From: Euryarchaeota archaeon UBA605
GTDB taxonomy: Archaea > Thermoplasmatota > Poseidoniia > Poseidoniales > Thalassarchaeaceae
NCBI GenBank assembly: GCA_002504905.1
Contig: DATY01000029.1
Location: forward strand, 78,306-142,305
Direction of reading: 5' to 3'
Length of the DNA stretch: 64,000 nt
Both the position numbers and the translations under genes were made by a program. Each line of letters begins with the position of its first letter. Position 1 is the first letter of the stretch. The notes beneath the pieces are model-generated. The model had not been told where the DNA came from. It worked only from the letters and a program-made list of their open reading frames with translations, and searched no databases. Below, one piece after another: positions 2,032 to 47,105 of the stretch.

Positions 2032-3495
2032 TTGGTTGTTAATATGATTTGGGGAGTGTTTCTTGAAGTTATTTCATGGGTGTTATTTGATATTTTATGG
2101 GCAATAATCAAGTCAATCTATGATGGTTTTAGGTGGATTATAAATCTCATAAAAACTGTAATTTTTGCTATATTCAGTGAAATTTCAGAAAAAAAAGAGA
2201 AAAAAAACTTAGGTACAAATATGGAGAATTCAAATGGAGAAGAAAATATAATTGATGTAATTAATGCATCAAAAACAAGAGACGAAGATGTGTTCAAATT
2301 ACTTGTTGGCTTCTCTGCTACTTTGATATCAGGATTCATCTTGGCTGTAATACTTCTATGGCTATTTTTTACCATGAATGGAGAAGTATTTGGTTTCAGC
2401 CCACCTCAATCATTAGTCACTTGGGAAGATGAATATAGAGACATGACTGGAATAAATGAAATTGAAGGATTGGACGGAACAGGTGTATCATTATGCATAG
2501 TAGATTCAGGAATTGATATTTCACATCCAGATTTAGAAAATATAAATCTTTTAGGTTGGAATGATGTCATTAATTCTAGTCCAAATCCATATGATGATGA
2601 TGGTCATGGAACAGCAATGGCAGGTATAATTGTCGCAGATGGAGGATTAAATGGAATCGCAAAAAATGTCGATTTATTTATTGCGAAGGCAATAAATTCT
2701 GATGGTTCTGGTACAGATGACGGGATTGCAGAAGCGGTAGATTGGTGTGTTTCACAAGGTAGCGATATTATTTCTTTAAGTCTAGGAGGTGGACAAGGTA
2801 TTGGTGGTGATTTATTCACTACAGATTCACTTGAGGTTGCAGTAGAAAATGCAATCGATCAGGGAGTATATGTTGTTGCTGCAGCAGGGAATGATGGTGA
2901 GGATGATGATGGAGATGTATCTTCTCCCGGTTCTGTTAAGGACGTAATTTGTGTCGGAGGTGTAACTAGACTTGGTAACTCATGGTCTGGAAGTTCAGAA
3001 GGAGATAATAACGGAAGACTATGGCCGAATCCAATTCTTCCAAGAAATGATCCTGATAAAAAACCAGAAATAATCGCGCCTGGACTTGAGGTACCAGTGT
3101 TGATGATAAACTCGAATTCATGGTGGGGATGGTCGAGTGGTACATCTGCTTCAACGGCATGGGTGTCAGGTGGACTGGCATTGTTCTTACAAGAATATCC
3201 TGATTTTCAAAGAAATACAGATAGTGATTCGACAAAGATTGAAGAAATTAAACAGCTATTGAGTGAGAACTCACAAATGAAAAATGGACAAAGTCAACAT
3301 GATGATCATTTTGGTTATGGAATATTTAGAATTGATTCTTTAATAGATTCAGCCAAAACAAATTCTTCTAATCTAGAAAATATAATTGAGACTTCAGATT
3401 TAACTATGCAAAAAAATATATTCGAAATATTTCAAAGTGAACGACGAATGACGGCTAGAGTCCCACCAGACAATTCTATAAAAGCCATAGAATGA
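2032..3495 (+). CDS. subtilisin-like serine protease (S8 family), membrane-anchored/secreted
   Basis: Catalytic triad motifs VDSGID (Asp), HGTAMAGI (His), GTSASTAWVSG (Ser); N-terminal TM segment. Confidence 0.8.
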   Translation: MVVNMIWGVFLEVISWVLFDILWAIIKSIYDGFRWIINLIKTVIFAIFSEISEKKEKKNLGTNMENSNGEENIIDVINASKTRDEDVFKLLVGFSATLISGFILAVILLWLFFTMNGEVFGFSPPQSLVTWEDEYRDMTGINEIEGLDGTGVSLCIVDSGIDISHPDLENINLLGWNDVINSSPNPYDDDGHGTAMAGIIVADGGLNGIAKNVDLFIAKAINSDGSGTDDGIAEAVDWCVSQGSDIISLSLGGGQGIGGDLFTTDSLEVAVENAIDQGVYVVAAAGNDGEDDDGDVSSPGSVKDVICVGGVTRLGNSWSGSSEGDNNGRLWPNPILPRNDPDKKPEIIAPGLEVPVLMINSNSWWGWSSGTSASTAWVSGGLALFLQEYPDFQRNTDSDSTKIEEIKQLLSENSQMKNGQSQHDDHFGYGIFRIDSLIDSAKTNSSNLENIIETSDLTMQKNIFEIFQSERRMTARVPPDNSIKAIE

Positions 3496-9359: not shown

Positions 9360-12300
9360 ATGTCAAATCAATTAAACAAAGTTACTATTTGTTTGGTAAT
9401 GACATCTCTATTAGTGCTAATGCCTCATTCAGGATTATTATCAAATTATGGAGACTATAGTGATGAAATTAAAGAAAAAAGAATTAACTCATCTTCTTCT
9501 GATTCTGATTCGTTATGGGTAGATGGTGGGCAACCTTGGCCCCAGCCAGGTAGAACTTCTGGTAGAGAATCCACTCCGCCCAATCATGGACCTGATGGAG
9601 GAGCAGGATTGGGTGCTCCAGATAATATTACAGAATTACAGTCGATAGTAGACCCTGTAATCAACTGGCAATATAGCAATTATATTTATTCTACAGATGC
9701 GTTTGCTACTCCAATTGCTGACCTATCTGAATCAATTGTATCCGACGAAGATTCTGATGAAAGATGTGGAGGAGACTCATTATTCACTGTAATCATACAA
9801 ACAGAAGATGTTGGAGGAAGCTTGCATAGTTTCCTTAGAATAATAGAAGGAGAAGATGCAGATCTTGCCTGGGAAGTTGACCTAGGAGAAACTGATGAAA
9901 TTAAGGCATCTCCAGTAGTTGTAGATTTAGACTATGATGGGAAGCAAGAAATTCTTGTTTCCTTTGATTTAAGTGGAACATTCTATGTCAAAGGTTATTC
10001 TCCTGAATTAGTTTGTTCAGTAACCGGTTGGTCACCAGGAGGTAGTCATGTCACTGAATTATTGTGGACATACTCAGATTCTACGTTAATGATTGGAAGT
10101 ACTGATGGCCCTTACGTCAGTAATGCGTATGGCGGACACAAGCCTACTGCCCAGCCTCTACTTGCAGATCTAGACTTGGATGGAACAGCGGAATTAGTAC
10201 TTTCATTAATTGAGAAAAATTCTGAAGAACCAGTAATCTTAGCATTAGATATCACCGGGACTTCTGCAACCTCCATATGGGAGAAAACATTGGATAAAGG
10301 AACACATCCATCAGATCCAACATTTGTACAAACTGATGAAAATACTGCTTTCGTGATTTTAACTTCTGTTCAGAGTTCTACAAGTGCAATGTGGCTGTGG
10401 AAACTTGATGCAGCGGATGGTGACTCAAATTGGGATGGGAAATCATTGGAAAATCTAAATAATTTTGATTCCAATGTACCTCACATTAGGCTTCCAGGAC
10501 CTGTGATTGCAAATTTAGATTCTGATGACGCTATGGAGATGGTGGTTACAATACCATCTGATTTTGACGGTAGTAGTGCAGCATATGGTGCTGAATATTA
10601 CGGTATTGAAATTAGCGATGGTACAAAAATTTGGGATTTTGAGGCCTCAAACGGTTATGCGGATTCTGCACCTATAGTTATTGATACTGATGAAGACGGA
10701 GATCATGACAGAGTTTGTTGGATTACTTGGACTACTAACAGTTGGAACACGAATAGAGATGGTTTCGCAGGATGTCATGATGACACTGACGGAACCAATC
10801 CTCAAGAAGCATGGAGTAAAGAAATTCTTGAACCACAAGGAGCGCCGAATGACGGAATTGCAGTTTCTTCACCTATTTGGATGAATATAGATGACTCTGA
10901 CGAACCAGAATTAATTGTGCCATATGGTAGAGAATTAAGGGCTTATGATGGAGAATTAGGAACTATGGCTGGAATAAACTCTTTCTGGAGTGAACCAATT
11001 GCAATTAACCATAGACTTTGGGCATCACCATCATTAGCAGATATTGATGGAGATGCAACTTTAGATTTAATTCTTGGAGATACCGTCATTTCAAATCAAG
11101 TAGCTGATATAAGGCCTCAATTGGATGGAAGAAGCATAGAGTTCAGCCCAGTTGCTCCAGACCCAGGAGAAATGGTAACTATCACAGTATCTTTTGAAAA
11201 TTCAGGTACCGCAGAAACTGATGAGGATTCAGATGTTATCTTATATGCTGATAATCAGATCATAGCTCAAGAAAGATTTGGGAATATGCAACCTGTTGAT
11301 CCAACAGGTTCAGGTTCTCTATCTACATTTACTGTAGAATGGTCAGGAAATCTAGGTGAACATGAATTCAAACTAGTTTTAGACCCTTACAGGAACATTA
11401 CACAATCTAGATACGATAATGATATTCATATTACGACATTGAGCATAGTTAATCCATATAATGCTAGTTTTGAGATCCCCACTGAACCAACCGTTGTCAC
11501 ACCCGGTGAAAACTCACTATTTACTCCAAATATTCGTTCTACAGGTAGGTTAGCAGGAATATGGAGCCTATCCGTAGACGACACAAATCTACCGGAAGGA
11601 TGGACGTGGAGCGATGAAACTACTGATGGCTTAGATTCAATTCAGATAGGAGTTGGGCAAATATGGAGTCCGAATCTGAGAATATTTGCACCGAGTGATG
11701 CATTAGGTTCTGACTCGGGTTACTTGACCCTAACATTAACTTTAGATGACGATAACAATGTTTCAATCTCTGCACTAGCAGCGGTGGAAGCAAATAGAAC
11801 TAGAGGTCTCTCAATTAGAGGGCCCGATGGGACTGCAAATACTCATGGATATGGTCTAACTGGAGAATACGCAGAGGCATGGATACTAATTCATAATTTA
11901 GGAAATGCATTGGAAAATCAAATTATTATGTCTTGGGATACAACTTCATGGGGTAATGATCTGAAATTATATGATTTAGAAGGAAATCAAATTCCTGCTC
12001 TAACTCTAGAACCAGATGAGATAATTTATGTCACTGCAAGACTGGATGTACCTAGTAATGCAAATTTGGGAGATTCAGTTAGTACACCTCTAGAAATGTG
12101 TGTTAGCGAGAATATATGTCAAACAATCGATATCTCATTCACCGCTACTGGCGTGACCACAGATGTACATCAGAGAACCGTTCCCGGCAGGACATTGTCA
12201 TGGGATATTTCAGCAGACATGCCTGTTGGGGAGAATCAACTTGAATGGTCTATGAATGATGCAGGATTAGTGATTCCAGGATGGTCTTGGAGTACGACCG

Positions 12301-23855: not shown

Positions 23856-23864
23856 CTAATCAAT

Positions 23865-25823
23865 TCATTCAGAATCCCATAGTGGTGGATAATCAAATCT
23901 TGGATCATAGTCTTCGTCAAATTGAACAACATAGACTCCTGTGACCATATCTGAAACGAAAACGAATCCTCTAGGGTCATATTGTAATCCCCAATTAAAT
24001 GGAATCATACAAGATGCCCAGCAATCCGCCATATCATACCCCATTTCAGTGGCTGGATCATCAATCCAAGGTGGACCGGCTGGAAGATAATAGCCAATGG
24101 TCTTAGTTTCGGCTAATTCTGAAATTGCTTGGAATCCTCTATCCGGCTCTGGAACTCCGTTTTCCCACACTATTTCATCCCAAATATCACCATGATCAGT
24201 TACCCAAGCTCCAGCATGATAGTGAGTGTAGTATACATGCCCTGATGGGCCAGTATCGCCATTATGCGGACTGAAAATATATCCACCAGGTATCCAATGC
24301 TGTGGATGTGAACCATTTCCTTTCATTCCCTCTCCAGGAAGCTTCCATTTTGAGACTAAGAAAGGTTCTGCAGGATCTGTTGTATCAATTGTCCATACGT
24401 AACCGGTATGATTCTCATTGGAACCGTATTCAGGAGCAATGTATGTGTAGTGTCTCCAGTTAACTCCATAGACTGGGTCTTCAAATCCAGTTCCACAGTT
24501 AGATGGCCAATTTTCTACAGGATCGAATACACTTATTCCTGAACAAATTAAGTAATCATTTGGAACTGCATAATGGATGTTATCATTTCCTTGATTGGCG
24601 TCGAGCCATTCGTCAGCATCCATATTTGCATGGCCACCACCTTCTGGACCATACCATCCATCATCAGCAGATGGGCAGCCCATCCAACGACCGACCTCAG
24701 GAGGCCAATTAATTCCTAAAGGATCTGGAACTTGAGGAGGAGTACTAACATCTACTAATCTCAAACCAGCACCCCAATAAGAAACTGCAAGTAATCTCTG
24801 CTGTGTTATAGGATGGACAAAGTAAACATTATCATGATTGAATATTGAACCACCACAGGTAGTGTATGGCTCTGGAGTGTAACCTCCCCAGCGAACTATT
24901 TCGCGATCAGAAGAATTTTCTTGTTCTTCATTTTGATTAGGATCCCACGAAGTAAAACCTCTTGGAACGTAAAATACTTGAGTTCCTTTGTAGAATGTAC
25001 CACTACTACCCTCGACCATTTCTGGATAAGGATCTGCTCCGAAAAGGAACAAATGACAATCTGCTTCATCCCACTGATTGACTGGATCAAAAGTAGGGTT
25101 CCAATCGCAATAAATTGCCAAATCTTGATTATGGAATCCTGCAGGAGGATTATTCCATTCTGCAACCTTCACCGGACTAGTTTTATCTCCAACATAAATC
25201 ACATCCATTCGATTTGCTCCACTATTAGCATCATCATCATTTGGAATAGGATCAAGTTCACTGTTTGTTAGTTCATGATTAACTAAAACCCAATTGTTAT
25301 CTTTAGTGACCTTGATATCAATCATTCTAGCTATTTCTGCATAATAAGTAGAAAGCATTTTTATGTTATTGGGATCACTAATATCGAGAATCTCAAATTG
25401 ATTGTAACTTGAAACATAAGCGTAACATCCACCAGTTCCGTCAGCATATATTTCACAATCTTCCATGAAATTACCTTCAATTGTTATTTCAGAGTTATCT
25501 CCAGGAGTAGGGCCTACATTCTTGTATTCATCTGAGCAAGGTCTTCCTGCAACATTATCTAATTCAGCAGGAGGTTTTTCGTTTCCATCGCAATTAAGAT
25601 TATGATAATCGATTAGTTTTGCATTGGCAGTGGATAATCTGTGAGCTAGCAGATCATTATGTGAGTGATTTTCATCTTCAATCTCTGTTACAGGATCAAT
25701 CCATTCCACATTTGCGTCTTCATCAGAGGAATCATCTCCAAGCATCGACATACACCCGGATAAGGGAGTTATTAGCATTAGAAAAACCATAAGAAACATT
25801 GGAAAATTAGAAATCCGTGACAT
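23865..25823 (-). CDS. secreted LVIVD-repeat beta-propeller-like protein, His-rich (paralog B)
   Basis: LVIVD-like strands EILDISD, LRLVDVS, VYVVQFD. Motifs HWIPGG..FSPHNGD and YHAGAW shared with paralog A. Lipobox-like LSGC. Confidence 0.55.
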   Translation of the reverse strand: MSRISNFPMFLMVFLMLITPLSGCMSMLGDDSSDEDANVEWIDPVTEIEDENHSHNDLLAHRLSTANAKLIDYHNLNCDGNEKPPAELDNVAGRPCSDEYKNVGPTPGDNSEITIEGNFMEDCEIYADGTGGCYAYVSSYNQFEILDISDPNNIKMLSTYYAEIARMIDIKVTKDNNWVLVNHELTNSELDPIPNDDDANSGANRMDVIYVGDKTSPVKVAEWNNPPAGFHNQDLAIYCDWNPTFDPVNQWDEADCHLFLFGADPYPEMVEGSSGTFYKGTQVFYVPRGFTSWDPNQNEEQENSSDREIVRWGGYTPEPYTTCGGSIFNHDNVYFVHPITQQRLLAVSYWGAGLRLVDVSTPPQVPDPLGINWPPEVGRWMGCPSADDGWYGPEGGGHANMDADEWLDANQGNDNIHYAVPNDYLICSGISVFDPVENWPSNCGTGFEDPVYGVNWRHYTYIAPEYGSNENHTGYVWTIDTTDPAEPFLVSKWKLPGEGMKGNGSHPQHWIPGGYIFSPHNGDTGPSGHVYYTHYHAGAWVTDHGDIWDEIVWENGVPEPDRGFQAISELAETKTIGYYLPAGPPWIDDPATEMGYDMADCWASCMIPFNWGLQYDPRGFVFVSDMVTGVYVVQFDEDYDPRFDYPPLWDSE

Positions 25824-25892: not shown

Positions 25893-27650
25893 TTAACTGA
25901 CGTGATACGGTTTATCTATATCCAATTGAACAATATATAATCCCGTTGTAATGCAAGAAAGATATGTATATCCATTATGATATTCTGCGGCCCAAATAAA
26001 TGGAGTCCAACCAAAGTCATAGTATGAGCTTGAAAGAGGAATTCCATCTTGTCCATGAGGTAAATGATACCCAATAGTGGATACAGAATGTACTTCAGTT
26101 CTATTCAAATCCGGATTTAGAGCTTCTAACATTAGAGTCTCAATATCGATTATCCATAATCCTGCATGGTAACTAGAAAGATAAATTCTACCATCCCAAT
26201 TACCACCGAGGCTCTGATCGGGTAAGCCCAGTGCTGAATTGGTTTCGAAAATTTGCGCATCTGAATTATGAGGGCTGAAAAGTAACCATTCTTCACCACC
26301 AGGAATATGATGTTGTTCAGCAAAAGGAATCTCCCAACTATGAATTATTTTTGGTAGGAATCTGACTTGACCATTTAACATTTCAAACTCAGTCGTATCT
26401 AACAAATATCCAAGACCTGTTCCCACAGTGGTCTCTAAAACTTCAGTTGCAAGGAATGTTAAATGCATTTTACCTGCTGGATAACCTAAATGAGAAGCAT
26501 CAACCATTTCATCCATTGGCTCTGCATAATGAATGTATGAAGCTCTGCCTCCATTCTCATTCCCTGTACATCCACAATCAATCTGCCCGTCTTCATCAAG
26601 GTCTGCAAACTCCATCCATTGACCAACCTCTGGGGCTCTCCAATTACAAGTTAGTTGAGTACCTAATGTTGCAGCACATCCGCCGGCAATAAATGCATAT
26701 TCTATTGGTGAGTTCTGTGGGTGAGGAACGTCACTGACATCGAATATTCTTAACCCGGCTTCCCAATATGCGCCGTAAATATACGTCTTACCATATCTAG
26801 GGTCTTGTTGATCTTCTCCTGGCCAAGTTTGTACAGTCATGTCATGAATATATATCCAGCCACCTAATGTATTTTGCCAGTTAACTTCTGCTTCACCAAC
26901 CTTGAGAATTCGAGGGCTATCACTTGGACCATCGAAATTAAGATGAGCTATTGTAATTCCCCCACATGCATCACCTTGACCAATATCGCACTGCTCATAA
27001 TCAGGATTTGCAACAAAGATATACCACTCATTATCAATCATATGAGTATACAAATTATGAGGACCACTTGGATGATCAGCATCATACCATGCATCGACAT
27101 AGGTTGGGTTATATTTATCTGAAACATCAATTAAAGTTACTGTAACTTGAGCAGGATCTCCCCATTCACCAACGTTTGGATCTGCATTACCTGGATCTAC
27201 TAACTGATTCTGTACTATTACATATTCATCTCCATTATACTGTAAATATTTTACATCTAAGACTTGAGTATTTGGATCCACATAAACTCCAGTAACGGTA
27301 GTATTCTCTGGATTTGTAACATCTACAATATGCATCTCTGACCAGCCAGCGATATATGCATATGTGCCACCATCTGGAGATTCCGCAACCTGAACTTCAG
27401 CATTCCCAGGTGCAGTCAATTGATTAAAAGAAATTGGTTGAATATTATCTGTATACATTATGTGCTGGCTAGCATTTCTATGATCATGCCCCTCATCTTG
27501 CATGAGTGGATCAATAATTGAAAAGTTACCCTCTACTGATTCAGAAGTCTCATCGGAAAGGAAAATTGCAGCTACACTAGCTGTTAATAAAAAGAAGATT
27601 AGGACGCCTGCTAAAGCAACTCTACGGTTATCCATGTAGGTCGGAAGCAA
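25893..27650 (-). CDS. secreted LVIVD-repeat beta-propeller-like protein, His-rich (paralog A)
   Basis: VHIVDVTN, LRIFDVSD, LWIIDIE, LYIVQLD; HHIPGG..FSPHNSD; SYHAGLW; signal peptide. Confidence 0.55.
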   Translation of the reverse strand: MLPTYMDNRRVALAGVLIFFLLTASVAAIFLSDETSESVEGNFSIIDPLMQDEGHDHRNASQHIMYTDNIQPISFNQLTAPGNAEVQVAESPDGGTYAYIAGWSEMHIVDVTNPENTTVTGVYVDPNTQVLDVKYLQYNGDEYVIVQNQLVDPGNADPNVGEWGDPAQVTVTLIDVSDKYNPTYVDAWYDADHPSGPHNLYTHMIDNEWYIFVANPDYEQCDIGQGDACGGITIAHLNFDGPSDSPRILKVGEAEVNWQNTLGGWIYIHDMTVQTWPGEDQQDPRYGKTYIYGAYWEAGLRIFDVSDVPHPQNSPIEYAFIAGGCAATLGTQLTCNWRAPEVGQWMEFADLDEDGQIDCGCTGNENGGRASYIHYAEPMDEMVDASHLGYPAGKMHLTFLATEVLETTVGTGLGYLLDTTEFEMLNGQVRFLPKIIHSWEIPFAEQHHIPGGEEWLLFSPHNSDAQIFETNSALGLPDQSLGGNWDGRIYLSSYHAGLWIIDIETLMLEALNPDLNRTEVHSVSTIGYHLPHGQDGIPLSSSYYDFGWTPFIWAAEYHNGYTYLSCITTGLYIVQLDIDKPYHVS

Positions 27651-28366: not shown

Positions 28367-28443
28367 GGGCGCTTAGCTCAGCTTGGAAGAGCACCTGGTT
28401 TGCAACCAGGTGGCCGGGGGTTCAAATCCCCCAGCGTCCACCA
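28367..28443 (+). tRNA. tRNA-Ala (anticodon TGC), CCA encoded
   Basis: GGGCGCTTAGCTCAGCTTGGAAGAGCACCTGGTTTGCAACCAGGTGGCCGGGGGTTCAAATCCCCCAGCGTCCACCA is a canonical cloverleaf. Confidence 0.9.
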
Positions 28444-28562: not shown

Positions 28563-28766
28563 ATGGATGAGAGGTTTGCAGCAAATCTTTCTTGGTATTA
28601 CCACTTAATTCCATTTATCACAGCGATTTTAGGGTTAATCGTCGGGAATATTTTAGTACAAAATTACGGTCCATTTGCGAAGACCATTTTTCCCTCTATG
28701 TGTCTAATAATTGGAGGATACGGCGGACTAGTAATTCTTGGAGAAATTTCTGAAAGGAAAAAATAA
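28563..28766 (+). CDS. small hydrophobic protein (hypothetical)
   Basis: 67-aa ORF with two predicted TM segments. Confidence 0.3.
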   Translation: MDERFAANLSWYYHLIPFITAILGLIVGNILVQNYGPFAKTIFPSMCLIIGGYGGLVILGEISERKK

Positions 28767-28792
28767 TATTTTTATTAAAGATACTTTGGAAA

Positions 28793-28955
28793 AATACAAG
28801 CATATTTATGTAAAAAATATAAATCTAAACAGACATTCATTAATGGATTATTACGAACAATAACAATGAACGCAGGACACATACTAGCAATCCTAATTGG
28901 TTTTTACGCTTCTTTCGCTGTTACAGTAATGAGCGTGACACCATTATTGGGTTAA
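28793..28955 (+). repeat. copy 1 of duplicated ~165-bp unit (conserved promoter-like leader + 29-aa ORF)
   Basis: Aligns with 32691..32863 (TTGGAAAAATACAAGCATATTTATGT... through the stop codon). The ORF part is very similar; the leader is less so. Confidence 0.75.
28866..28955 (+). CDS. 29-aa hydrophobic peptide (copy 1): MNAGHILAILIGFYASFAVTVMSVTPLLG
   Basis: Hand translation. Not in ORF track (<60 aa). The duplicated, conserved peptide sequence argues it is coding. Confidence 0.4.
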   Translation: MNAGHILAILIGFYASFAVTVMSVTPLLG

Positions 28956-28964
28956 TTGAAACAT

Positions 28965-29657
28965 TCATCTCCGAGACTGGATTTTGTTATCTTCCCTCCA
29001 CCAATTTCTCTCTGGTGAAATTCTATTGATAATTTCCTTAAATGAAAATATCACATCTCTAGCCTCTGGTATAGTTTCTACTGTAGCTAAATCTATTATT
29101 GATTTGTTGTCTAATTGTAAAAAAACTGTATTACTAAACACTATTTTTTGAAATTTAGATCCTATCCAATGTCCATCACTAATTCTTTCAACCATTTCAA
29201 CATCCCCCCTTCGAACATATGTCGGATCTTCATTATGCGTATTTTCTCGTATAAAGAAATCACACTTAGAATACTTCTCATTCTTTACGGTCTTAGATTT
29301 CTTATCTGTACCAATATGTAGTTCAATATATTTCCCTTCAGCAGGATTAATCTCCTTTCTAGTGATTTTATTAGATAAAAATGGAATCTGAAGATTGAAA
29401 TTAATTATTAGTTCTGGCATACCATTAATCCAAAATCCCAAGAAAATTATCAAAATGATACCAATGGGTAAAGAATATCCGTAAATTGAAATTCCAGAAA
29501 ATATAATGTAGATTGGATATGCGATAACTAATCCAAAAATCAGAAAAATAAGTTTAAGATATCTATAATGTCTTTCTTCCTTGAATAACACATTTTTCGA
29601 TGAATCGAATGTCCATTGAGAACTTGTATGAACTTTTTGACCGGATATTAAATCCAT
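28965..29657 (-). CDS. membrane protein (two N-terminal TM helices + bacterial PH-like soluble domain?)
   Basis: Hydropathy; no catalytic motif. Confidence 0.4.
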   Translation of the reverse strand: MDLISGQKVHTSSQWTFDSSKNVLFKEERHYRYLKLIFLIFGLVIAYPIYIIFSGISIYGYSLPIGIILIIFLGFWINGMPELIINFNLQIPFLSNKITRKEINPAEGKYIELHIGTDKKSKTVKNEKYSKCDFFIRENTHNEDPTYVRRGDVEMVERISDGHWIGSKFQKIVFSNTVFLQLDNKSIIDLATVETIPEARDVIFSFKEIINRISPERNWWREDNKIQSRR

Positions 29658-29754
29658 AGTGTATGCTGGAATAGTTTGTAGATAAATAAATCTACGGCAT
29701 TGGAAATTTAAATTTTAAGTGAGTAAAGCTCAATTTATTGATTAGATGGATTAA

Positions 29755-30624
29755 TTACCTGACTTTTGGTTTAGGGAAATTTATTGAAGAAATTCTAATT
29801 ATTGCAATTCCAATTATTCCACTAAGAACAAAAAGAAGCATTGATGAAACACCTGGTGATGATATAGCAACCCGAATTACTACAGTTGAAAGAACAAAAC
29901 CAGTATTTCTGGCTAAGTTTCCAAAATCTGTATAAAACCAGTATGAAATCAAAAGAATAAGTATATCTGCGAGGATTAAAAAGGTGAAGAAATCTAAGAA
30001 GAAAATCTCTCTATTTACAGCACCTTTCCCTTCAAATACTGATTCAATCCAACCAGACATGGACGTAAAAGTAATAATTACGAAAACTAATAGCATCATC
30101 AAAGCAATGACTTCTTTGGAAAAAATAAACGAGGATAGTCGATTATCTTGCAAATTTTCACTTTTTATCTCTTTGCTGATTCTTTGGTAAATCAATGAAG
30201 TGTAGAACAATACCAAAAATGCCAAACATTCTACTATCAGGAAGCCTAAATCTTCATCAATCTTCCATCCATCTTGAAATTCGATATTGGAAAGTCTTTT
30301 CAGAATATCTCTGACAACCAAGAGAGTAGCAATTTCATACTGCTTACCTACGGATGATGAAAAGGACTCAGGAATTGTTCGAATCAACTGATAGACTTCA
30401 TAAGCCAATAAAATTGAAAACGGAGTATATAGAGAGGATAATGGAGAATTGAACATTTCCATATTTTCTCCTGAGAGACTATATCTTTCGGTCTGAATTA
30501 ATAACCAAATCAGTAGATGGAGTGTGAAGCCAATTATCGCAGAAATAATAGCTATTTTTCTGACAATTTGGTCTACTTCCCGCCCCAAAAGTGACTCATA
30601 GTAGTATCCAACAGAAGATCGCAT
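29755..30624 (-). CDS. multi-pass integral membrane protein (hypothetical)
   Basis: About 7 hydrophobic segments. Confidence 0.45.
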   Translation of the reverse strand: MRSSVGYYYESLLGREVDQIVRKIAIISAIIGFTLHLLIWLLIQTERYSLSGENMEMFNSPLSSLYTPFSILLAYEVYQLIRTIPESFSSSVGKQYEIATLLVVRDILKRLSNIEFQDGWKIDEDLGFLIVECLAFLVLFYTSLIYQRISKEIKSENLQDNRLSSFIFSKEVIALMMLLVFVIITFTSMSGWIESVFEGKGAVNREIFFLDFFTFLILADILILLISYWFYTDFGNLARNTGFVLSTVVIRVAISSPGVSSMLLFVLSGIIGIAIIRISSINFPKPKVR

Positions 30625-30697
30625 ATACTTTAGTAATGAAAATTACTTTTTATTATGGGTTATAAAAAAAAATACAAAAAAGGTATAATTTTGCTAA

Positions 30698-32602
30698 TCA
30701 AACAGTTTGATTGAGCCAGTCCAAACAAGACTGATGGGTACATCTCGGTGGATCGAACAATAGTTTTTCCTCTGGATGAATTATATCTAGGAATAGATTG
30801 GAACTAGAACTTTCAGAAACTTCAACAATTGAGCTTGTAGATGCTGGTAGGTAGTCCTCTCCAGTACTAGCAAGTGACAGACGAATAGTATGGCCGGCTT
30901 GTATTTGTACATCCATGGCAAAGAACTCCATCTTGGCATTAATTGTTTCAAAAATAGGTAACCAAGTCTGTTCCTGATTCCCTCCCTCGTGATATCTCAA
31001 ATCCATAATAGCATGCCCAATGTGAATACAATTTCCTTCTTCGGAACAGTCTTCTAATAATGCATAGATTTGCCCGCCAACTGTTGCTGTAGAAACGTCA
31101 ATGTGTAATCTGGGTAAACCTGAAATCCAAATATCTTCAGTAAATTCTTCAGTCTCATAAATTGGTCCAAAGTTACCATTGGGAAGTATTGTAGTTGTAC
31201 CTCCTGCTACATTAATCAATCCACCTCCAAGATCTAATGAGATTGTTTCCATGTCTTGTGGAGGGTATCTTTCTTCAATTCTCCATTGGCCTTGATTAGA
31301 TTGTATCTCAACAAATAATCCTGGCTTATCACCAACTCCTTTAAGATACCAGTCAAACCATTCTAGTAAATCTTGCATCCAGTCAAATCTAACCATTTGA
31401 GGGTACGCCTCTCTACCTCTGCCTTCTCCCGAGCGGTCAAAATGATAATCAGGTCTATCTGGATAATCGTGGTCCCATTGACCGAATAATCCCTTAGATT
31501 CAATACCTGCATCAATTAATTGATTTATTACTGGGATAGCCATATGAGGATCAACATTCCAGTCATGCATTCCTTGAATGAGATACACAGAACCTTCATA
31601 ATTTTCTAATACTCTGTCTAGAAAATATCTCTCTTCCCAATATGTTCCTGCAAACTCACCGCCCCACATGTAAGCTGCAACTCCAGTACCCGGACCGATA
31701 ATATAATCTGGACAAACATTTCCAATATCTTCCTGGTCTCCATCAAATCCATATGACCCATAAACTCCATTATGCATTATCGGAGCTCTCGCTTCACTAC
31801 TACCATTTTTCCACATTAATTCCATTACCCCAATCAAACCAGAAATTGGCACAATTGTCTTAAGATATTCATTTCCAAATGTGGCTGCCTGCCACGGAGT
31901 AGAACCATCATATGATTTACCAATCATTGATACACCACCATTACTCCATTCTTGAGTACCTAGCCAAGTTACAGCGGCATCAACCCCAAGTTGTTCCGCA
32001 TTTCCCATCAAGTCCATACAATGATTCGAACGTCCGGTACCCATTACTGAGACTTGGGCAAAAGCATATCCGTGAGGTAAAATCTGATCTATTATCATTT
32101 GACCAAGCCATGTACCTGGAACTTCTATTGATGGAGTGTCGACGCTGACTTCATCAAAATAAGGTCCAAATTCTGCAATAACTGGTACTGTTACTCCTTC
32201 GGGCACATCTGGAAGCCAAACTGCAAGACTAACAACACCATTAGGAGCTGAACCTCCTTCGCTAAGTGGTAATTCAAAATTCACGAAATGATGAGTTGAG
32301 CCCCATTCATTATCAGTTTCCAGTAAATCATACTCGCCAAATTCCATGACAAATCCATTCGCCTGATCTGTGTTATACGGCCACTCCGACCTTTCCCATA
32401 CTGGAACTCTTTCATAAATCCCTAAATCTTTTTTGATTTCATCTACTACATCGTCAATTATCCAACCCTGTAGAGATAACAGTAACATGATTATTGTCAT
32501 TGACATTGCAACTGCTAATAATTTAGCATTAGAATTAGTAAAATTTTTAAATTTTTCAGAAAGAGGGGTTGATTTGTCTCCAACTGGAACTCCCTCTATC
32601 AT
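30698..32602 (-). CDS. S15-family peptidase / CocE-NonD family hydrolase (Xaa-Pro dipeptidyl-peptidase-like), secreted
   Basis: Nucleophile elbow MIGKSYDGS (GxSYxG); N-terminal signal anchor; ~630 aa with a C-terminal beta-sandwich typical of the family. Confidence 0.7.
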   Translation of the reverse strand: MIEGVPVGDKSTPLSEKFKNFTNSNAKLLAVAMSMTIIMLLLSLQGWIIDDVVDEIKKDLGIYERVPVWERSEWPYNTDQANGFVMEFGEYDLLETDNEWGSTHHFVNFELPLSEGGSAPNGVVSLAVWLPDVPEGVTVPVIAEFGPYFDEVSVDTPSIEVPGTWLGQMIIDQILPHGYAFAQVSVMGTGRSNHCMDLMGNAEQLGVDAAVTWLGTQEWSNGGVSMIGKSYDGSTPWQAATFGNEYLKTIVPISGLIGVMELMWKNGSSEARAPIMHNGVYGSYGFDGDQEDIGNVCPDYIIGPGTGVAAYMWGGEFAGTYWEERYFLDRVLENYEGSVYLIQGMHDWNVDPHMAIPVINQLIDAGIESKGLFGQWDHDYPDRPDYHFDRSGEGRGREAYPQMVRFDWMQDLLEWFDWYLKGVGDKPGLFVEIQSNQGQWRIEERYPPQDMETISLDLGGGLINVAGGTTTILPNGNFGPIYETEEFTEDIWISGLPRLHIDVSTATVGGQIYALLEDCSEEGNCIHIGHAIMDLRYHEGGNQEQTWLPIFETINAKMEFFAMDVQIQAGHTIRLSLASTGEDYLPASTSSIVEVSESSSSNLFLDIIHPEEKLLFDPPRCTHQSCLDWLNQTV

Positions 32603-32690
32603 ACAAACTCGTGTTGAAGAGTATTATTCAGACTTATGTATTTTTGATTGTTAAAAATTTTTAATAAAAATATGATTTAATGTTAAAATT

Positions 32691-32863
32691 AGCCTTGAAA
32701 AAATACAAATGTATTTATGTTGAAAAATGAAAAGTAAACAGACATTAATGAATGGATTGAGTTAACCAACAATAATGAATACAGGACACATACTTGCAAT
32801 CCTAATTGGTTTTTACGCTTCTTTCGCTGTTACGGTGATGAGTGTGACTCCATTATTAGGTTG
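32691..32863 (+). repeat. copy 2 of duplicated unit (leader + 29-aa ORF)
   Basis: See copy 1; its 3' end abuts or overlaps the photolyase start. Confidence 0.75.
32774..32863 (+). CDS. 29-aa hydrophobic peptide (copy 2): MNTGHILAILIGFYASFAVTVMSVTPLLG
   Basis: Hand translation; one aa differs from copy 1 with several synonymous changes, consistent with purifying selection on the peptide. Confidence 0.4.
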
Positions 32864-32893
32864 AAAAAAAAAACCCGTACCGGGGGAAGAAGA

Positions 32894-34459
32894 GTGAAAA
32901 ATGCCATAGTTTGGTTTAGGAAAACACTCAGAATTCACGATAACCCTATGTTAATTTGGGCAGAATCATCGCAGGATTTCGATTCTATAATTCCTATTTA
33001 CATACTGGAAGAGAATTGGAGTCATGAAAAGACAGGAAAACTAGGAAATAATAGATTGAGTTTTCTTTTCGATTCACTACTCGATTTAGATAATAATCTG
33101 AAAAATAATTTCGATACTAGATTACAAATATTCTCAGGAGATCCATGCGAGGTAATCGAATCAATCTTGAATACTAAAGATAGTAAAGTAAAATCTTTAC
33201 TTACTGACTACTGTTCCGAGCCAGGTAGCATTAATGATATTTTTCAGGTAACTGAAAATCTAGAAAAAAATGATATTAATGTGAAAGTTTTTCCTGCAGT
33301 AAATACTATCTTAGATATTGAGAAAATTATAAAGAATAAGAATTTTAAGTTGCCTAAATCTACTAATGATATGGAAAAAATATTCAACGATAATCATATT
33401 ATTGGACCCTATGGGAATCTAATAGATGGAGATCTACCAACTCCTAAAAAAATCTGTTCTGATTCATTATTTGTAAAATCAATTAAGAAACAAAAACATA
33501 TTTCAAATTTTTATATTCCAATAGAAGAAATTAGAGAAAGAAATTATCAATTGAAATTGGAAGTAGGGTTTGAGAATTCATATTTTCTGGGTGGAGAAAC
33601 TGAGGCTTTAAAAAGACTTGAAAAGAAAATTTCTGAGAGGCCTGATTTCGTTAACAGTTTTAGAAAACCTAAGACATACTCAACTAACGAAGATAACAAT
33701 CCAATGGAACCAACAACAACTGGACTTTCCCCCTATATTAGCAATGGGTGTTTGTCGGTTAGATTGGTTTGGAATGAGTGTGCTAGTATTCAAAATTCGG
33801 GACATACTAAACCTCCAGAATCTCTTCACGGACAATTAATGTTTAGAGAAATGTTCTACCTATTATCCAGATCTGTAGAAAATTGGGATAGCGATATTGG
33901 AAATATAAATTGTAAACCAGTAAAATGGGGAGATTATGATGAAGAAAAAATTAGAGCATGGGAATTGGGAAAAACAGGTTTCCCTTACATCGATGCAATG
34001 ATGAGGCAACTTGAGGCAACCGGATGGATGCATCATCTAGGCAGACATGCTGTTTCTTGCTTTCTAACAAGAGGACAGTTGTGGCAAAATTGGAAATATG
34101 GGAGAGATATTTTTGAAAGGAAATTAATTGATTCAGACTGGGCTGTGAATAACGGAAATTGGCTCTGGTTAGCTGGAGTTGCCCCCTTCTCAATGCCCTA
34201 CTACAGAGTCTATAATCCGTGTCCAGATAAGAAATCAAGTCTGAATGTGGAGACGGAAAAGGCTACTTTTATACGATATTGGATTCCTGAATTATCATTA
34301 TTCCCATCAAAATACATTTTTGAACCAAATTTAGCACCTTTAGAAATACAAAAATCGTCGAATTGTATAATTGGAGAAGACTACCCATTTCCAATTGTCG
34401 ATCGAAAGAATACTAGAAAGGAAAATCTAATTAAATTCAAATCGAATATTAAGCAATGA
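32894..34459 (+). CDS. cryptochrome/photolyase family protein, (6-4) photolyase / animal-cryptochrome type
   Basis: N-terminal IVWFRKTLRIHDNPML. C-terminal GWMHHLGRHAVSCFLTRGQLWQNWKYGRDIFERKLIDSDWAVNNGNWLWLAG...YYRVYNPC (FAD-binding region). Start ambiguous: the ORF track uses TTG at 32861, but the GTG at 32894 gives MKNAIVWFRK. Confidence 0.75.
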   Translation: MKNAIVWFRKTLRIHDNPMLIWAESSQDFDSIIPIYILEENWSHEKTGKLGNNRLSFLFDSLLDLDNNLKNNFDTRLQIFSGDPCEVIESILNTKDSKVKSLLTDYCSEPGSINDIFQVTENLEKNDINVKVFPAVNTILDIEKIIKNKNFKLPKSTNDMEKIFNDNHIIGPYGNLIDGDLPTPKKICSDSLFVKSIKKQKHISNFYIPIEEIRERNYQLKLEVGFENSYFLGGETEALKRLEKKISERPDFVNSFRKPKTYSTNEDNNPMEPTTTGLSPYISNGCLSVRLVWNECASIQNSGHTKPPESLHGQLMFREMFYLLSRSVENWDSDIGNINCKPVKWGDYDEEKIRAWELGKTGFPYIDAMMRQLEATGWMHHLGRHAVSCFLTRGQLWQNWKYGRDIFERKLIDSDWAVNNGNWLWLAGVAPFSMPYYRVYNPCPDKKSSLNVETEKATFIRYWIPELSLFPSKYIFEPNLAPLEIQKSSNCIIGEDYPFPIVDRKNTRKENLIKFKSNIKQ

Positions 34460-45551: not shown

Positions 45552-47105
45552 TTATTCAACCCATGAATATTTTCTTTGACCTTCTAGAACATCATCCCCG
45601 CCCACAGAAACTAAGGCAAATTCATTTTTTGGAGATAAAATTGATTTTTTCGCAGTGCCTCTATGCAGTGATTCATAAATTTCTTTATCGATAGGATGTC
45701 GTTCATCAAGTCTGTTAAATAAATTGAATCTTGCTGCAATTTGTTTCCATTCTGGTTGTAAAATTCCTTCAAAGACTTTTGCTTTAGCACCCGATCCATA
45801 ACCACACAGACCTATTCTTTCACCGATCATTTTTTCATTATCCAAATGATCTGACTCAATTGTAGACATTAAAGCTAGAAAAATCGAACCTGTATATTGA
45901 TTTCCAACAAGGCTAGATGCCCTTTGTGCTTTCTCAATTCTAGCATCAACAAAATCCTTAAACATCGAAGTTTTAGAAATTAATCGGCGATATTGATCGT
46001 TGGCTTTCTCAAACTCTTCATATCCTTCCGCAGAATCTTCAAAATCTCCTGGAAGAGGTTCGTCTCCAATTTCTTCAATAATTTCATTCCATAAAGGTAG
46101 ATTTCTTCTATCATGTCTAAAAACATCTGGAAACATTCTTTTTCCTTGAAATGCATAAGGTAGATGAACAATTATTCTCTTCCACTGTTCGGTCAAAATA
46201 TCATCTTCATCAGGATTATACCGGCCAGACCTAATTGCTTCAATTCTAAAATTTATGAATGCTTGTTTAACAGATTCTGAATAACAACGATTAGAAAACT
46301 GACCATCGAAAACAGGAGTATCTTTATGAATCTTCAAAGTTTTAGACTCAAAAAGAATATTATCTTTAAGTGTCGAAAAAGGTAATACGTCAAGTATTTT
46401 CTCCACTAGTCCTGACTTTCTAGGTTTTTCACCAGCTTCTTCAGCCAGATCTAGGACGTTCTCTACCACCGTTTTCATATCTACTTCTCTCCTAGGTTTG
46501 AAAAAGTCATGAACAGGCATTGTTGAAACCCCCCAATTATCTGGAATTACAATTAATCTAGGATTATGTCGTATTAGTATCGCTCCCCCTCCAGCGCCTT
46601 GAGTATATTCTCCAGATGACTCAAGATCATATTTTGCATTATCTGCGAAAACAACTATTCCAATTCTATCTTGAGATTCTCCTCCTCTTGCAACCCAATC
46701 TAGTGTATTGTGCATTGCATCTACAGCCCCTATACAAGCAAATGTCAAATCTACAACATCACAATGCCTAAAACAATCTTCTCCAAATTGTTCTTGATAT
46801 CTTTGTTCTAACATATCCATAATGTAAGTTGCAGTAGGTTTAGCGCCATCAAGTGCTGATTCAGTACCGAGATAGATTCTACCAATATTATTAGGATCGA
46901 GATTATTTCGATCTATTAATCTAGCACAGGCATTAGCACCCATAGTAGCTGTATCTTCATGCACGTCTGGAATTGCCATTGCTTTCAATCCAAGACCTCG
47001 ATTTAGTTTTCCAAAATCAGCACCACGAAACTCAGCAAAATCTTCCATATCAAAATATAGTTTAGGAAAATGTATGGATATATCGTCAATTCCTACCTCT
47101 GTCAT
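45552..47105 (-). CDS. hydroxymethylglutaryl-CoA synthase, long (eukaryote-like) form
   Basis: VGIDDISIHFPKLYFD, LGTESALDGAKPTATYIMDML, the catalytic Cys region and GYGSGAKA. The alternative ORF-track start at 47195 overlaps the tyrS stop (ATGA). Confidence 0.7.
   Translation of the reverse strand: MTEVGIDDISIHFPKLYFDMEDFAEFRGADFGKLNRGLGLKAMAIPDVHEDTATMGANACARLIDRNNLDPNNIGRIYLGTESALDGAKPTATYIMDMLEQRYQEQFGEDCFRHCDVVDLTFACIGAVDAMHNTLDWVARGGESQDRIGIVVFADNAKYDLESSGEYTQGAGGGAILIRHNPRLIVIPDNWGVSTMPVHDFFKPRREVDMKTVVENVLDLAEEAGEKPRKSGLVEKILDVLPFSTLKDNILFESKTLKIHKDTPVFDGQFSNRCYSESVKQAFINFRIEAIRSGRYNPDEDDILTEQWKRIIVHLPYAFQGKRMFPDVFRHDRRNLPLWNEIIEEIGDEPLPGDFEDSAEGYEEFEKANDQYRRLISKTSMFKDFVDARIEKAQRASSLVGNQYTGSIFLALMSTIESDHLDNEKMIGERIGLCGYGSGAKAKVFEGILQPEWKQIAARFNLFNRLDERHPIDKEIYESLHRGTAKKSILSPKNEFALVSVGGDDVLEGQRKYSWVE

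Follow-up and report, generated by a model that had tools for sequence, protein, structure and literature searches.

Enterococcal sex pheromones are cut from lipoprotein signal peptides and act after cleavage. The hli proteins of marine cyanobacteria are multi-copy, small, single-helix membrane proteins in abundant marine plankton, and KdpF, CydX, oxidase subunit IIa and yeast Cox7 are short proteins with a single hydrophobic helix. Bacterial type I toxins (Ibs, TisB, Lpt) are peptides of 19-29 residues (IbsA has 19, Lpt 29) with one hydrophobic helix, encoded in intergenic regions and in several chromosomal copies (PMC2887945). Here we report a 29-codon gene that occurs twice in a 64-kb stretch of DNA from Euryarchaeota archaeon UBA605 (contig DATY01000029.1, positions 78,306 to 142,305; hereafter the window, 64,000 nt). 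Each copy sits in a repeat unit of about 200 nt that also carries two upstream AT-rich boxes. By descent the unit classes with the signal peptides of surface proteins of Marine Group II (MGII) archaea, and we consider it probable that its product is a functional membrane microprotein derived from such a signal peptide.

With the type I toxins the unit shares its size, a hydrophobic single helix, several chromosomal copies and an intergenic location; it differs in lacking a structured leader, in its very tight conservation and in its archaeal host, and we know of no experimentally shown archaeal type I system. The enterococcal pheromones, which we offer as a lead, also present a signal-peptide sequence freed from the mature protein, but they are released by cleavage whereas here the signal peptide is encoded alone. 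KdpF, CydX, subunit IIa and Cox7 are of similar length to the peptide and have the same single hydrophobic helix; the peptide gene, however, never shares an operon with the genes of a complex, and it has several loci instead of one. The likeness to the hli proteins lies in small size, a single helix and several copies, and in the link of one copy of the peptide to a light-dependent repair gene. The peptide has neither sequence similarity to them nor a pigment-binding motif, and the link to light comes from one paralogue clade only. To our knowledge no family of conserved signal-peptide-only genes has been described.

The first-pass annotation of the window had reported two units of about 165 bp in the same orientation, each with a 29-residue open reading frame (ORF). 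The repeat is real but the units start about 30 nt further left than had been supposed. A repeat search gave two direct repeats of 196 nt each with 78% ungapped identity, and blastn aligned unit 1 to unit 2 at 81% over 199 nt (E = 8e-46). A 35-nt core has exactly two occurrences in the window and none in shuffles. Similarity between the units ends at the ORF stop codon. The two ORFs differ by one residue and by silent changes, just as had been noted: seven of the eight sense differences are silent and fall on third codon positions, the eighth exchanges a residue (A3T), and the stop codons are TAA and TGA. The proportions of synonymous (pS) and non-synonymous (pN) difference are 0.32 and 0.016 (Fisher p = 2.5e-4), and the probability that at least seven of eight differences fall on third positions by chance is 0.0026.

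A degenerate DNA pattern was written for codons 13-26, with the window alleles excluded and with start and stop left free, and was used to scan metagenomes. The scan found 48 loci. Counted with the loci retrieved previously, there are 53 stand-alone units; all but one of them, L058, start with ATG and stop at codon 30 (52 of 53), with TAA, TGA and TAG all serving as that stop. Among the 29 distinct DNA alleles, variable sites at codon positions 1, 2 and 3 number 13, 3 and 26, and pN/pS is 0.18 over all codons and 0.26 for those that the search pattern left free. At the amino acid level, 17 of the 29 positions are invariant across paralogues with about 37% synonymous-site difference. The alternative frames of the ORF are closed or almost closed. 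The selection on the peptide that had been suggested from the two window copies is thus upheld across the wider set, and a check of relatives for frame-destroying changes found the ORF conserved as a coding sequence; a non-coding repeat is not indicated. Suppression of synonymous variation along the ORF was uneven and not striking, and was rejected as a sign of an overlapping element; a scan of viral contigs with a degenerate pattern returned no unit.

More distant members were located with a profile search of 1.84 billion proteins (the first row of the profile being 30 aa). Four of these (MNTGTILAFLIGTYASFAIAVMAATPLLA, MNAGQILVFLIGSYASFAIAVMAAAPILA, MNIGTILAFLIGTYASFAIAVMAVTPLVA and MTTRTVLVVLIASYASFAVTAMTITPLLS) are again exactly 29 residues from Met to stop. 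DNA for three of the four (P0136, P0137, P0140) comes from visibly less AT-rich contigs and carries the same two boxes at the same distances from the ORF. Together these comparisons show the ORF to be a genuine gene that is selected, old and present at several loci. We also note that in the distant, less AT-rich lineage (L077:3210-3300, L080:1717-1881) the 29-codon gene comes after genes matching the geranylgeranyl-reductase and polyprenyl-synthetase Pfam families, and that a second small hydrophobic ORF (MVFKTLFAMLV...) is found about 27 nt past it, preceded by a GGTGG site.

The gene is poorly represented in public protein sets. A query concatenating the two variants matched 13 predicted proteins, each of which is the 29-mer with an upstream extension or a TGA read-through artefact; P0002, for example, is ORF 2 read exactly through its TGA as Trp. 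In the public assemblies of the window population itself the 29-codon gene is uncalled. Several of the public calls P0001, P0002, P0003, P0005, P0006, P0008 and P0134 read TGA as Trp (e.g. ...PLLGWKKKPVPGEEEWKMP), genetic code 4 having apparently been used on AT-rich short contigs. In further public calls the ORF is stretched upstream across the stop-free promoter region.

The peptide matches no Pfam or NCBIfam family, and its best sequence match in the PDB, yeast Cox7, is non-significant (E = 2.5). Its grand average of hydropathy (GRAVY) is 1.5, rising to 2.1 (2.08) in the core. Invariant small residues are G4, G12, S16, A15, A18 and a G, A or S at position 29, and to these are added Y14, H5, M22 and P26. 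Such positions, with the small-residue motif G12-x-x-x-S16 among them, suggest a helix that packs specifically against itself or a partner and is more than just hydrophobic. The proposal of the first-pass annotation that the units represent a family of tiny membrane peptides with their own promoter is well supported.

The source of the family was located through the photolyase gene that follows unit 2. In the relative L004 the position of unit 2, directly before the photolyase, is taken by a gene for a 520-aa protein whose N-terminus (MFNARMIMPMLVGLYASFAIVAMTVTPIVAAEE) is 52% identical to the peptide over 27 aa (tblastn, E = 2e-6 in a small search). The same combination of upstream boxes and a 52%-identical peptide as N-terminus of the 520-aa protein is found in L004, L027 and L071. 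The remainder of this protein looks like two fasciclin (FAS1) repeats with a cupredoxin domain and a PGF-CTERM anchor, the make-up of a surface protein; Fasciclin and Copper-bind are precomputed Pfam matches on the near-identical homologue P0018, and the PGF-CTERM was read by eye. In nhmmer searches, whose E-values refer to a small search space, positions 7-165 of the unit model align to the 5′ regions of the surface-protein genes of L004, L027 and L071 (E = 1.7e-9), and the model also matches the more distant homologue in L076 (E = 1.2e-4). These alignments show whole-length homology between the unit and the 5′ module (two AT-rich boxes, spacer and signal peptide) of surface-protein genes. 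The surface-protein family has more than 7,600 matches in these archaea. We found no literature on fasciclin proteins in Marine Group II.

The MGII FAS1/cupredoxin/PGF-CTERM signal peptide and the stand-alone peptide have the same Box 1, Box 2, spacing and start codon, and a hydrophobic core with YASFA...M.V.P. Representative surface-protein N-termini are MNTRMIMPIIVGMYVTF..SPIVAA with cleavage before EE, MNARLALVAVITTAMLLAPPVVIA with cleavage before DD and MHKRNALIALIMTACLMTMPIAMA with cleavage before DS, the cleavage sites being inferred by eye from alignments rather than by a signal-peptide predictor. After the conserved Pro (Pro26) the stand-alone ORF continues for three residues and stops, whereas the FAS1 signal peptides continue for four before the mature protein begins. 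Position 4 is Arg or Lys in the FAS1 signal peptides but Gly in the units, where it is invariant across 17 variants; Arg to Gly is a single AGA to GGA change, and the distant member P0140 is the only one that keeps Arg. The stand-alone unit thus lacks both the positive N-region and the cleavage site with cargo of the FAS1 signal peptide, and it differs further in having several stand-alone copies kept under selection. Ending one residue short of the predicted cleavage site and carrying Gly4, its product would therefore be a signal peptide without its last residue, its positive charge or its cargo. The comparison favours a truncated surface-gene copy giving rise to the stand-alone gene over an L004-type gene capturing a unit, because related signal peptides and boxes are widespread in the large surface-protein family (L073).

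Every unit has the two boxes in conserved form, and so do the surface-protein genes and those distant members that come from less AT-rich contigs. Box 1, (G/A)TAT(A/T)T(A/T)T, starts about 62-65 nt before the ATG (73 nt in L073). Box 2, AAACA(G/C)..TTCAT(T/A)(A/G)(T/A), has its start 30 nt ahead of the ATG in the units; in the distant members and surface-protein genes this distance is 29-32 nt. The TATA-like elements of the first-pass annotation are present (ATATTTATGT at 28802-28811 and GTATTTATGT at 32711-32720) and conserved, but their assignment as core promoter was probably mistaken, Box 2 being the one that matches the boxes of tRNA genes. Most of the seven tRNA genes in the window have a TTCAAATG, CTCAAAATG, ATTTGAATG or GATTAAATC box about 30-35 nt before the mature 5′ end, and many protein genes in the window lack a Shine-Dalgarno site but show a similar box about 25-35 nt ahead of the ATG. 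A published survey (PMC6028130) assigned all 11 of its Thermoplasmata genomes to the mostly leaderless class and placed their promoter box about 26 nt from gene starts. On these lines of evidence Box 2 is more likely than Box 1 to be the core promoter, with its transcription factor B recognition element (BRE) and TATA element, of a leaderless mRNA. Box 1 may act as an upstream element or binding site, or else as a second promoter, in which case the leader would be 33 nt long.

Downstream of copy 2 the peptide gene and the photolyase gene appear to be joined in one transcript. The ATG of the photolyase in relatives aligns with GTG 32894 in the window, 29 nt past the stop of peptide 2, and the peptide-photolyase spacer is conserved at 28-40 nt in relatives. 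The sequence GGGGGAAG within this spacer resembles sites before those window genes that lack a box at about -30. Given the Shine-Dalgarno-like site, the absence of a T-run and the conserved spacing of 28-40 nt, copy 2 and the photolyase are therefore likely to be the first and second cistrons of one transcript. It had been stated that copy 2 ends exactly where the photolyase ORF begins. This holds for the mechanical ORF (TTG 32861) but not for the real start, which is GTG 32894. In the stretch 32861-32896 the TGA of ORF 2 is followed by ten consecutive A, and the -1 frame is open from TTG 32861 into the photolyase, which produces a misleading mechanical ORF of 532 aa. A -1 frameshift fusing peptide 2 to the photolyase was considered and rejected: the frame is closed in relatives such as L021, so its opening here is put down to chance.

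In L001, the closest species representative, the sequence TAAACAGACATTAATGAATGAATG (L001:9912-9936), with the motif TAAACAGACATTAATGAATG, is kept 66 nt before the photolyase ATG and directly after the stop of the upstream gene; there the promoter would serve the photolyase without the peptide. The upstream gene of L001 encodes 309 aa and is nitrilase-like by eye. A wider regulon for the motif TAAACAGRCATTMATKAAT was looked for in 609 kb of related sequence, in which it occurs only in units, at the L001 photolyase and in one chance coding match. The palindrome ATTCATTAATGAAT was tried as a general operator and dropped, as it shows no enrichment in the window. A near-match to Box 2 with two mismatches (TAAACAAGCATTCATAAAT) is present at 46251-46269 on the minus strand, inside the coding region of a 547-aa HMG-CoA-synthase-like protein (by eye), and was judged to be chance.

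In a tree of units, copy 1 and copy 2 fall in two separate deep clades. The clade of copy 1 includes L026a, to the left of a homologue of the 289-aa gene, L031 and L036, after tRNA-Asp, and L024 and L030, before a large protein with subtilase-like sequence motifs. The clade of copy 2 holds units located between an S15 peptidase and the photolyase (L021, L026b, L042, L059, L063, L023, L050). Both copies are present in L026, from another species, where they flank the 289-aa homologue and the S15 peptidase at a distance of 3154 nt from each other; they are 67% identical to each other and 77-83% identical to their respective window counterparts. Since the copies belong to separate deep clades of paralogues, and both clades have positional orthologues elsewhere, the duplication must be ancient and the 3.7 kb between the copies are not an inserted block. 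The interval contains genes for the 230-aa and 289-aa proteins and the S15 peptidase in the window, the 289-aa and S15 genes in L026, and the 230-aa and S15 genes without the left copy in L059. Its gene content thus varies among relatives, as the first-pass annotation had proposed to check, but never as a block bounded by the repeats. The companion suggestion, that the copies are the duplicated ends of a rearranged or inserted segment, does not fit copies that are about 81% identical, belong to separate old clades, are both retained in L026 and enclose an interval that changes piecemeal. A search of all fetched loci with the family model gave no additional or degenerate copies, and no significant terminal inverted repeats were seen by eye. 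We note that clade D, whose units are S15-adjacent with a 191-aa gene downstream, groups in the tree with clade A (the tRNA-Tyr and purH units) and not with clade C (the S15-adjacent units before the photolyase); this suggests concerted evolution within a genome, or independent arrivals at the S15 position.

Units are found in a range of settings: after an intron-containing tRNA-Tyr, after tRNA-Asp, after purH (the neighbour matching AICARFT_IMPCHas), divergent from the S15 peptidase with the photolyase or the 191-aa gene downstream, before a subtilase-like large protein, and to the left of the 289-aa homologue. These neighbour classes were assigned mostly by reading the sequences and in a few cases by precomputed Pfam matches. 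About half of the units are followed by a convergent gene, and the divergent pairing with the S15 peptidase is retained in three unit clades. Functional linkage through neighbours was considered and set aside, since the neighbouring genes are unrelated to one another. A link to light or stress through the photolyase, which the first-pass annotation had raised, is weak: the photolyase follows one part of the unit tree only, other units are elsewhere, and L001 has a photolyase without the peptide. The identification of that gene as a (6-4) photolyase, on the other hand, was correct. The nearest solved structures are (6-4) photolyases and animal-type cryptochromes (3fy4, E = 1e-93), and the window protein is 56-69% identical to photolyases from genome bins of Thalassarchaeaceae (Marine Group IIb). 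Used as an anchor among species-representative genomes, it gave one informative relative (L004), synteny being poor at such distance.

The tRNA-Tyr(GTA) of the relatives, about 120 nt before the unit, was missed by ARAGORN and found by Rfam (L033:2555-2655; L028:1762, 2756; L051:4736, 1601, 607; L068:100, 3003; L070:4871, 260; L035; L065). Many of these contigs have two or three direct copies of the tRNA 3′ end (GGTTCAAGTCCGGGAGCGCGGA) with variable DNA between them, and the unit always comes after the last fragment. We read the repeated 3′ ends as the signature of one or several elements integrated into tRNA-Tyr. Mobility of the unit together with a tRNA fragment was rejected: the pattern is accounted for by islands that inserted into tRNA-Tyr while the unit downstream stayed in place.

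From these results we propose that each unit is a small gene with a transcript of its own, encoding a very hydrophobic peptide of 29 residues that most likely forms a single membrane helix. The 5′ module of an MGII surface-protein gene would have been cut off before the cleavage site to become a stand-alone gene, and the truncated module would have been retained at several loci by purifying selection on sequence and length. Transcription would start about 25 nt past TTCATTAATG, at or next to the AUG, giving a leaderless mRNA. The transcript of copy 1 would end against the convergent gene, and that of copy 2 would run into the photolyase, whose translation would begin at a separate Shine-Dalgarno-like site. 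As 29 residues are too few to reach out of the ribosome by termination, the peptide would enter the membrane post-translationally and would act there. The promoter type is probably shared with the surface-protein gene, so the expression pattern would be shared as well. Candidate roles are tuning signal peptidase or signal-peptide peptidase, acting on the envelope protein pathway, or serving as precursor of a hydrophobic signalling peptide.

Some observations weigh against this proposal. The search pattern fixed parts of codons 13-26 and so inflated the conservation there, although the free codons are still constrained. The peptide ORF is lost in L001, and the unit of L058 is truncated at its 5′ end, with codons 8-29 and the stop remaining and a T20P change; the gene must therefore be dispensable at individual loci. 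The L058 unit, on the minus strand at about 3110-3150 (reverse-strand position 10838) and left of the 289-aa homologue, is the sole clearly decayed copy that we saw. Copy number per genome is directly established for the window population and L026 only, with two copies each. There is no consistently adjacent partner gene; apart from the recurring divergent S15 peptidase, the neighbours are unrelated. Lacking both Lys and Arg, the peptide would escape standard tryptic proteomics.

Other explanations of the unit were weighed against the same evidence. The free signal peptide might itself be the functional product, made from several signal-peptide-only genes under the promoter of the surface protein, and we regard this as a tentative possibility. 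It is unlikely, in our view, that the peptide is inert and the unit a portable promoter with a translated leader (an upstream ORF) that tunes a downstream gene, e.g. the photolyase. The ORF does lie 28-40 nt before the photolyase in clades C and E and about 175 nt before the 191-aa gene in clade D, two units precede a subtilase-like large protein, the promoter motif without the ORF is retained before the L001 photolyase, and regulatory nascent peptides can in general have a conserved sequence. However, unit 1, L020, L026a, L033, the tRNA-Tyr and purH units and others face a convergent gene, so nothing is placed downstream for them to regulate, and in every context, as in the distant lineages, the peptide keeps its amino acid sequence and its length of exactly 29 residues. 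An archaeal counterpart of the type I toxins, that is a membrane-damaging hydrophobic peptide whose mRNA is checked by an antisense RNA and which has several copies per genome, would match the 29 residues, the single very hydrophobic helix (core GRAVY 2.08), the several loci and the conserved flanking non-coding sequence. A convergent gene within 10-130 nt of about half of the units could also provide a transcript that overlaps the ORF in antisense. We nevertheless consider it decidedly unlikely. Known type I toxin mRNAs have long structured leaders, whereas the mRNA here is probably leaderless and folds into nothing conserved or of unusual stability. No antisense RNA is known at the units, although no search for one was made. 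The 17 invariant positions of 29 are tighter than hydrophobicity alone requires, one copy probably heads the operon of a housekeeping repair gene, and Pfam and NCBIfam hold no match.

A functionless origin of the repeats, as decaying remnants of surface-protein 5′ ends or as direct repeats of an inserted or rearranged 3.7-kb segment, seems very improbable and is largely refuted. It would account for the homology to the 5′ end of a larger gene, for copies that flank a segment of differing gene content among relatives, and for the one truncated (L058) and one deleted (L001) copy. It does not account for differences that are overwhelmingly synonymous, for units of which 52 of 53 are intact with the same stop, or for copies that are 81% identical and sit in old, separate clades with positional orthologues; nor is the interval gained or lost as a block, and neither other degenerate copies nor, by eye, terminal inverted repeats were seen. 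The remaining idea, of a non-coding RNA or a mobile miniature element in which the ORF is incidental, we hold to be extremely improbable. The unit is indeed a short intergenic repeat of about 200-250 nt, sometimes beside tRNA genes, but its variation by codon position is that of a coding sequence and the spread beside tRNA-Tyr is explained by the islands. Folding of the units gave z-scores of 0.05 and -0.9, and hence no excess stability; covariation in the 21-sequence unit alignment amounted to 0 pairs; and the Rfam scan returned tRNAs only.

The features of the window locus are collected in the table below. The first-pass annotation had placed two membrane proteins and an S15 peptidase between the copies. 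The S15 match stands, as do hydrophobic stretches in the 230-aa and 289-aa ORFs, these having been read from the translations rather than obtained from a topology predictor. Its description of the 230-aa protein as 'PH-like' finds no significant Pfam or NCBIfam match. The S15 peptidase sequence has unchanged copies on many ocean metagenome contigs (Tara Oceans and other assemblies), and these contigs have the same gene order and near-identical units. They represent the same population and therefore contain no evolutionary signal. The 67-aa ORF upstream of unit 1 has two hydrophobic stretches, judged by eye, and in the relative P0009 the unit comes directly after a tRNA, without this ORF. Elsewhere in the window there are two adjacent large paralogues on the minus strand, of 652 aa (23864-25823) and 585 aa (25893-27650); the 585-aa paralogue has an LVIVD repeat match and clusters with the 652-aa paralogue in an all-against-all comparison.

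Features of the window locus (positions are those of the window; coordinates of the peptide genes include the stop codon)
Feature	Position	Strand	Remarks
tRNA-Ala(TGC)	28367..28443	+	upstream context of unit 1
67-aa hydrophobic ORF	28563..28766	+	between tRNA-Ala and unit 1; weak DUF2273 match, below threshold; called gene in public assemblies
Repeat unit 1 (upstream boxes and ORF)	28758..28953	+	clade B paralogue; repeat search, blastn to unit 2, nhmmer with family model (E = 2.6e-49)
Box 1, unit 1	28790..28811	+	AAAAATACAAGCATATTTATGT; conserved in all units, surface-protein genes and distant units; about 63 nt before ATG
Box 2, unit 1	28826..28845	+	TAAACAG (BRE-like), ACA, TTCATTAATG (TATA-like); 30 nt before ATG; most conserved non-coding stretch
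Peptide gene 1	28866..28955	+	MNAGHILAILIGFYASFAVTVMSVTPLLG; stop TAA
230-aa protein with hydrophobic stretches	28965..29657	-	convergent with peptide gene 1, the stop codons being separated by 9 nt
T-run TTTTGTT after gene 1	28982..28988	+	inside 3′ end of convergent 230-aa gene; possible archaeal terminator
289-aa protein with several hydrophobic stretches	29755..30624	-	between units 1 and 2
S15 / CocE-NonD family peptidase	30698..32602	-	between the units, divergent from unit 2
Repeat unit 2	32667..32862	+	clade C paralogue, S15/photolyase position; repeat search, blastn, nhmmer, unit tree
Box 1, unit 2	32699..32720	+	AAAAATACAAATGTATTTATGT; unit alignment
Box 2, unit 2	32735..32754	+	TAAACAG, ACA, TTAATGAATG; 30 nt before ATG
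Peptide gene 2	32775..32864	+	MNTGHILAILIGFYASFAVTVMSVTPLLG (MNTGH...); stop TGA
29-nt spacer	32865..32893	+	A-run and Shine-Dalgarno-like GGGGGAAG (32882-32889); no T-run
(6-4) photolyase / animal-cryptochrome-type gene	32894..34459	+	real start GTG 32894; Pfam; PDB 3fy4, E = 1e-93

Most gene callers miss the peptide gene, which in public assemblies is usually absent, extended upstream or read through its TGA. The two boxes and the leaderless layout may aid the annotation of gene starts in these genomes, and the peptide sequence is specific enough for searches in ocean metatranscriptomes and in non-tryptic proteomes. The units would represent a case of microprotein birth, in which the 5′ part of a large surface-protein gene, promoter plus signal peptide, was severed from the rest and then kept by selection at several loci. 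Marine Group II archaea are among the most abundant archaea of the surface ocean and have no cultured member. If it is true that the peptide acts on secretion or envelope assembly, or in signalling between cells, it would add a new regulatory layer in this ecologically important group.

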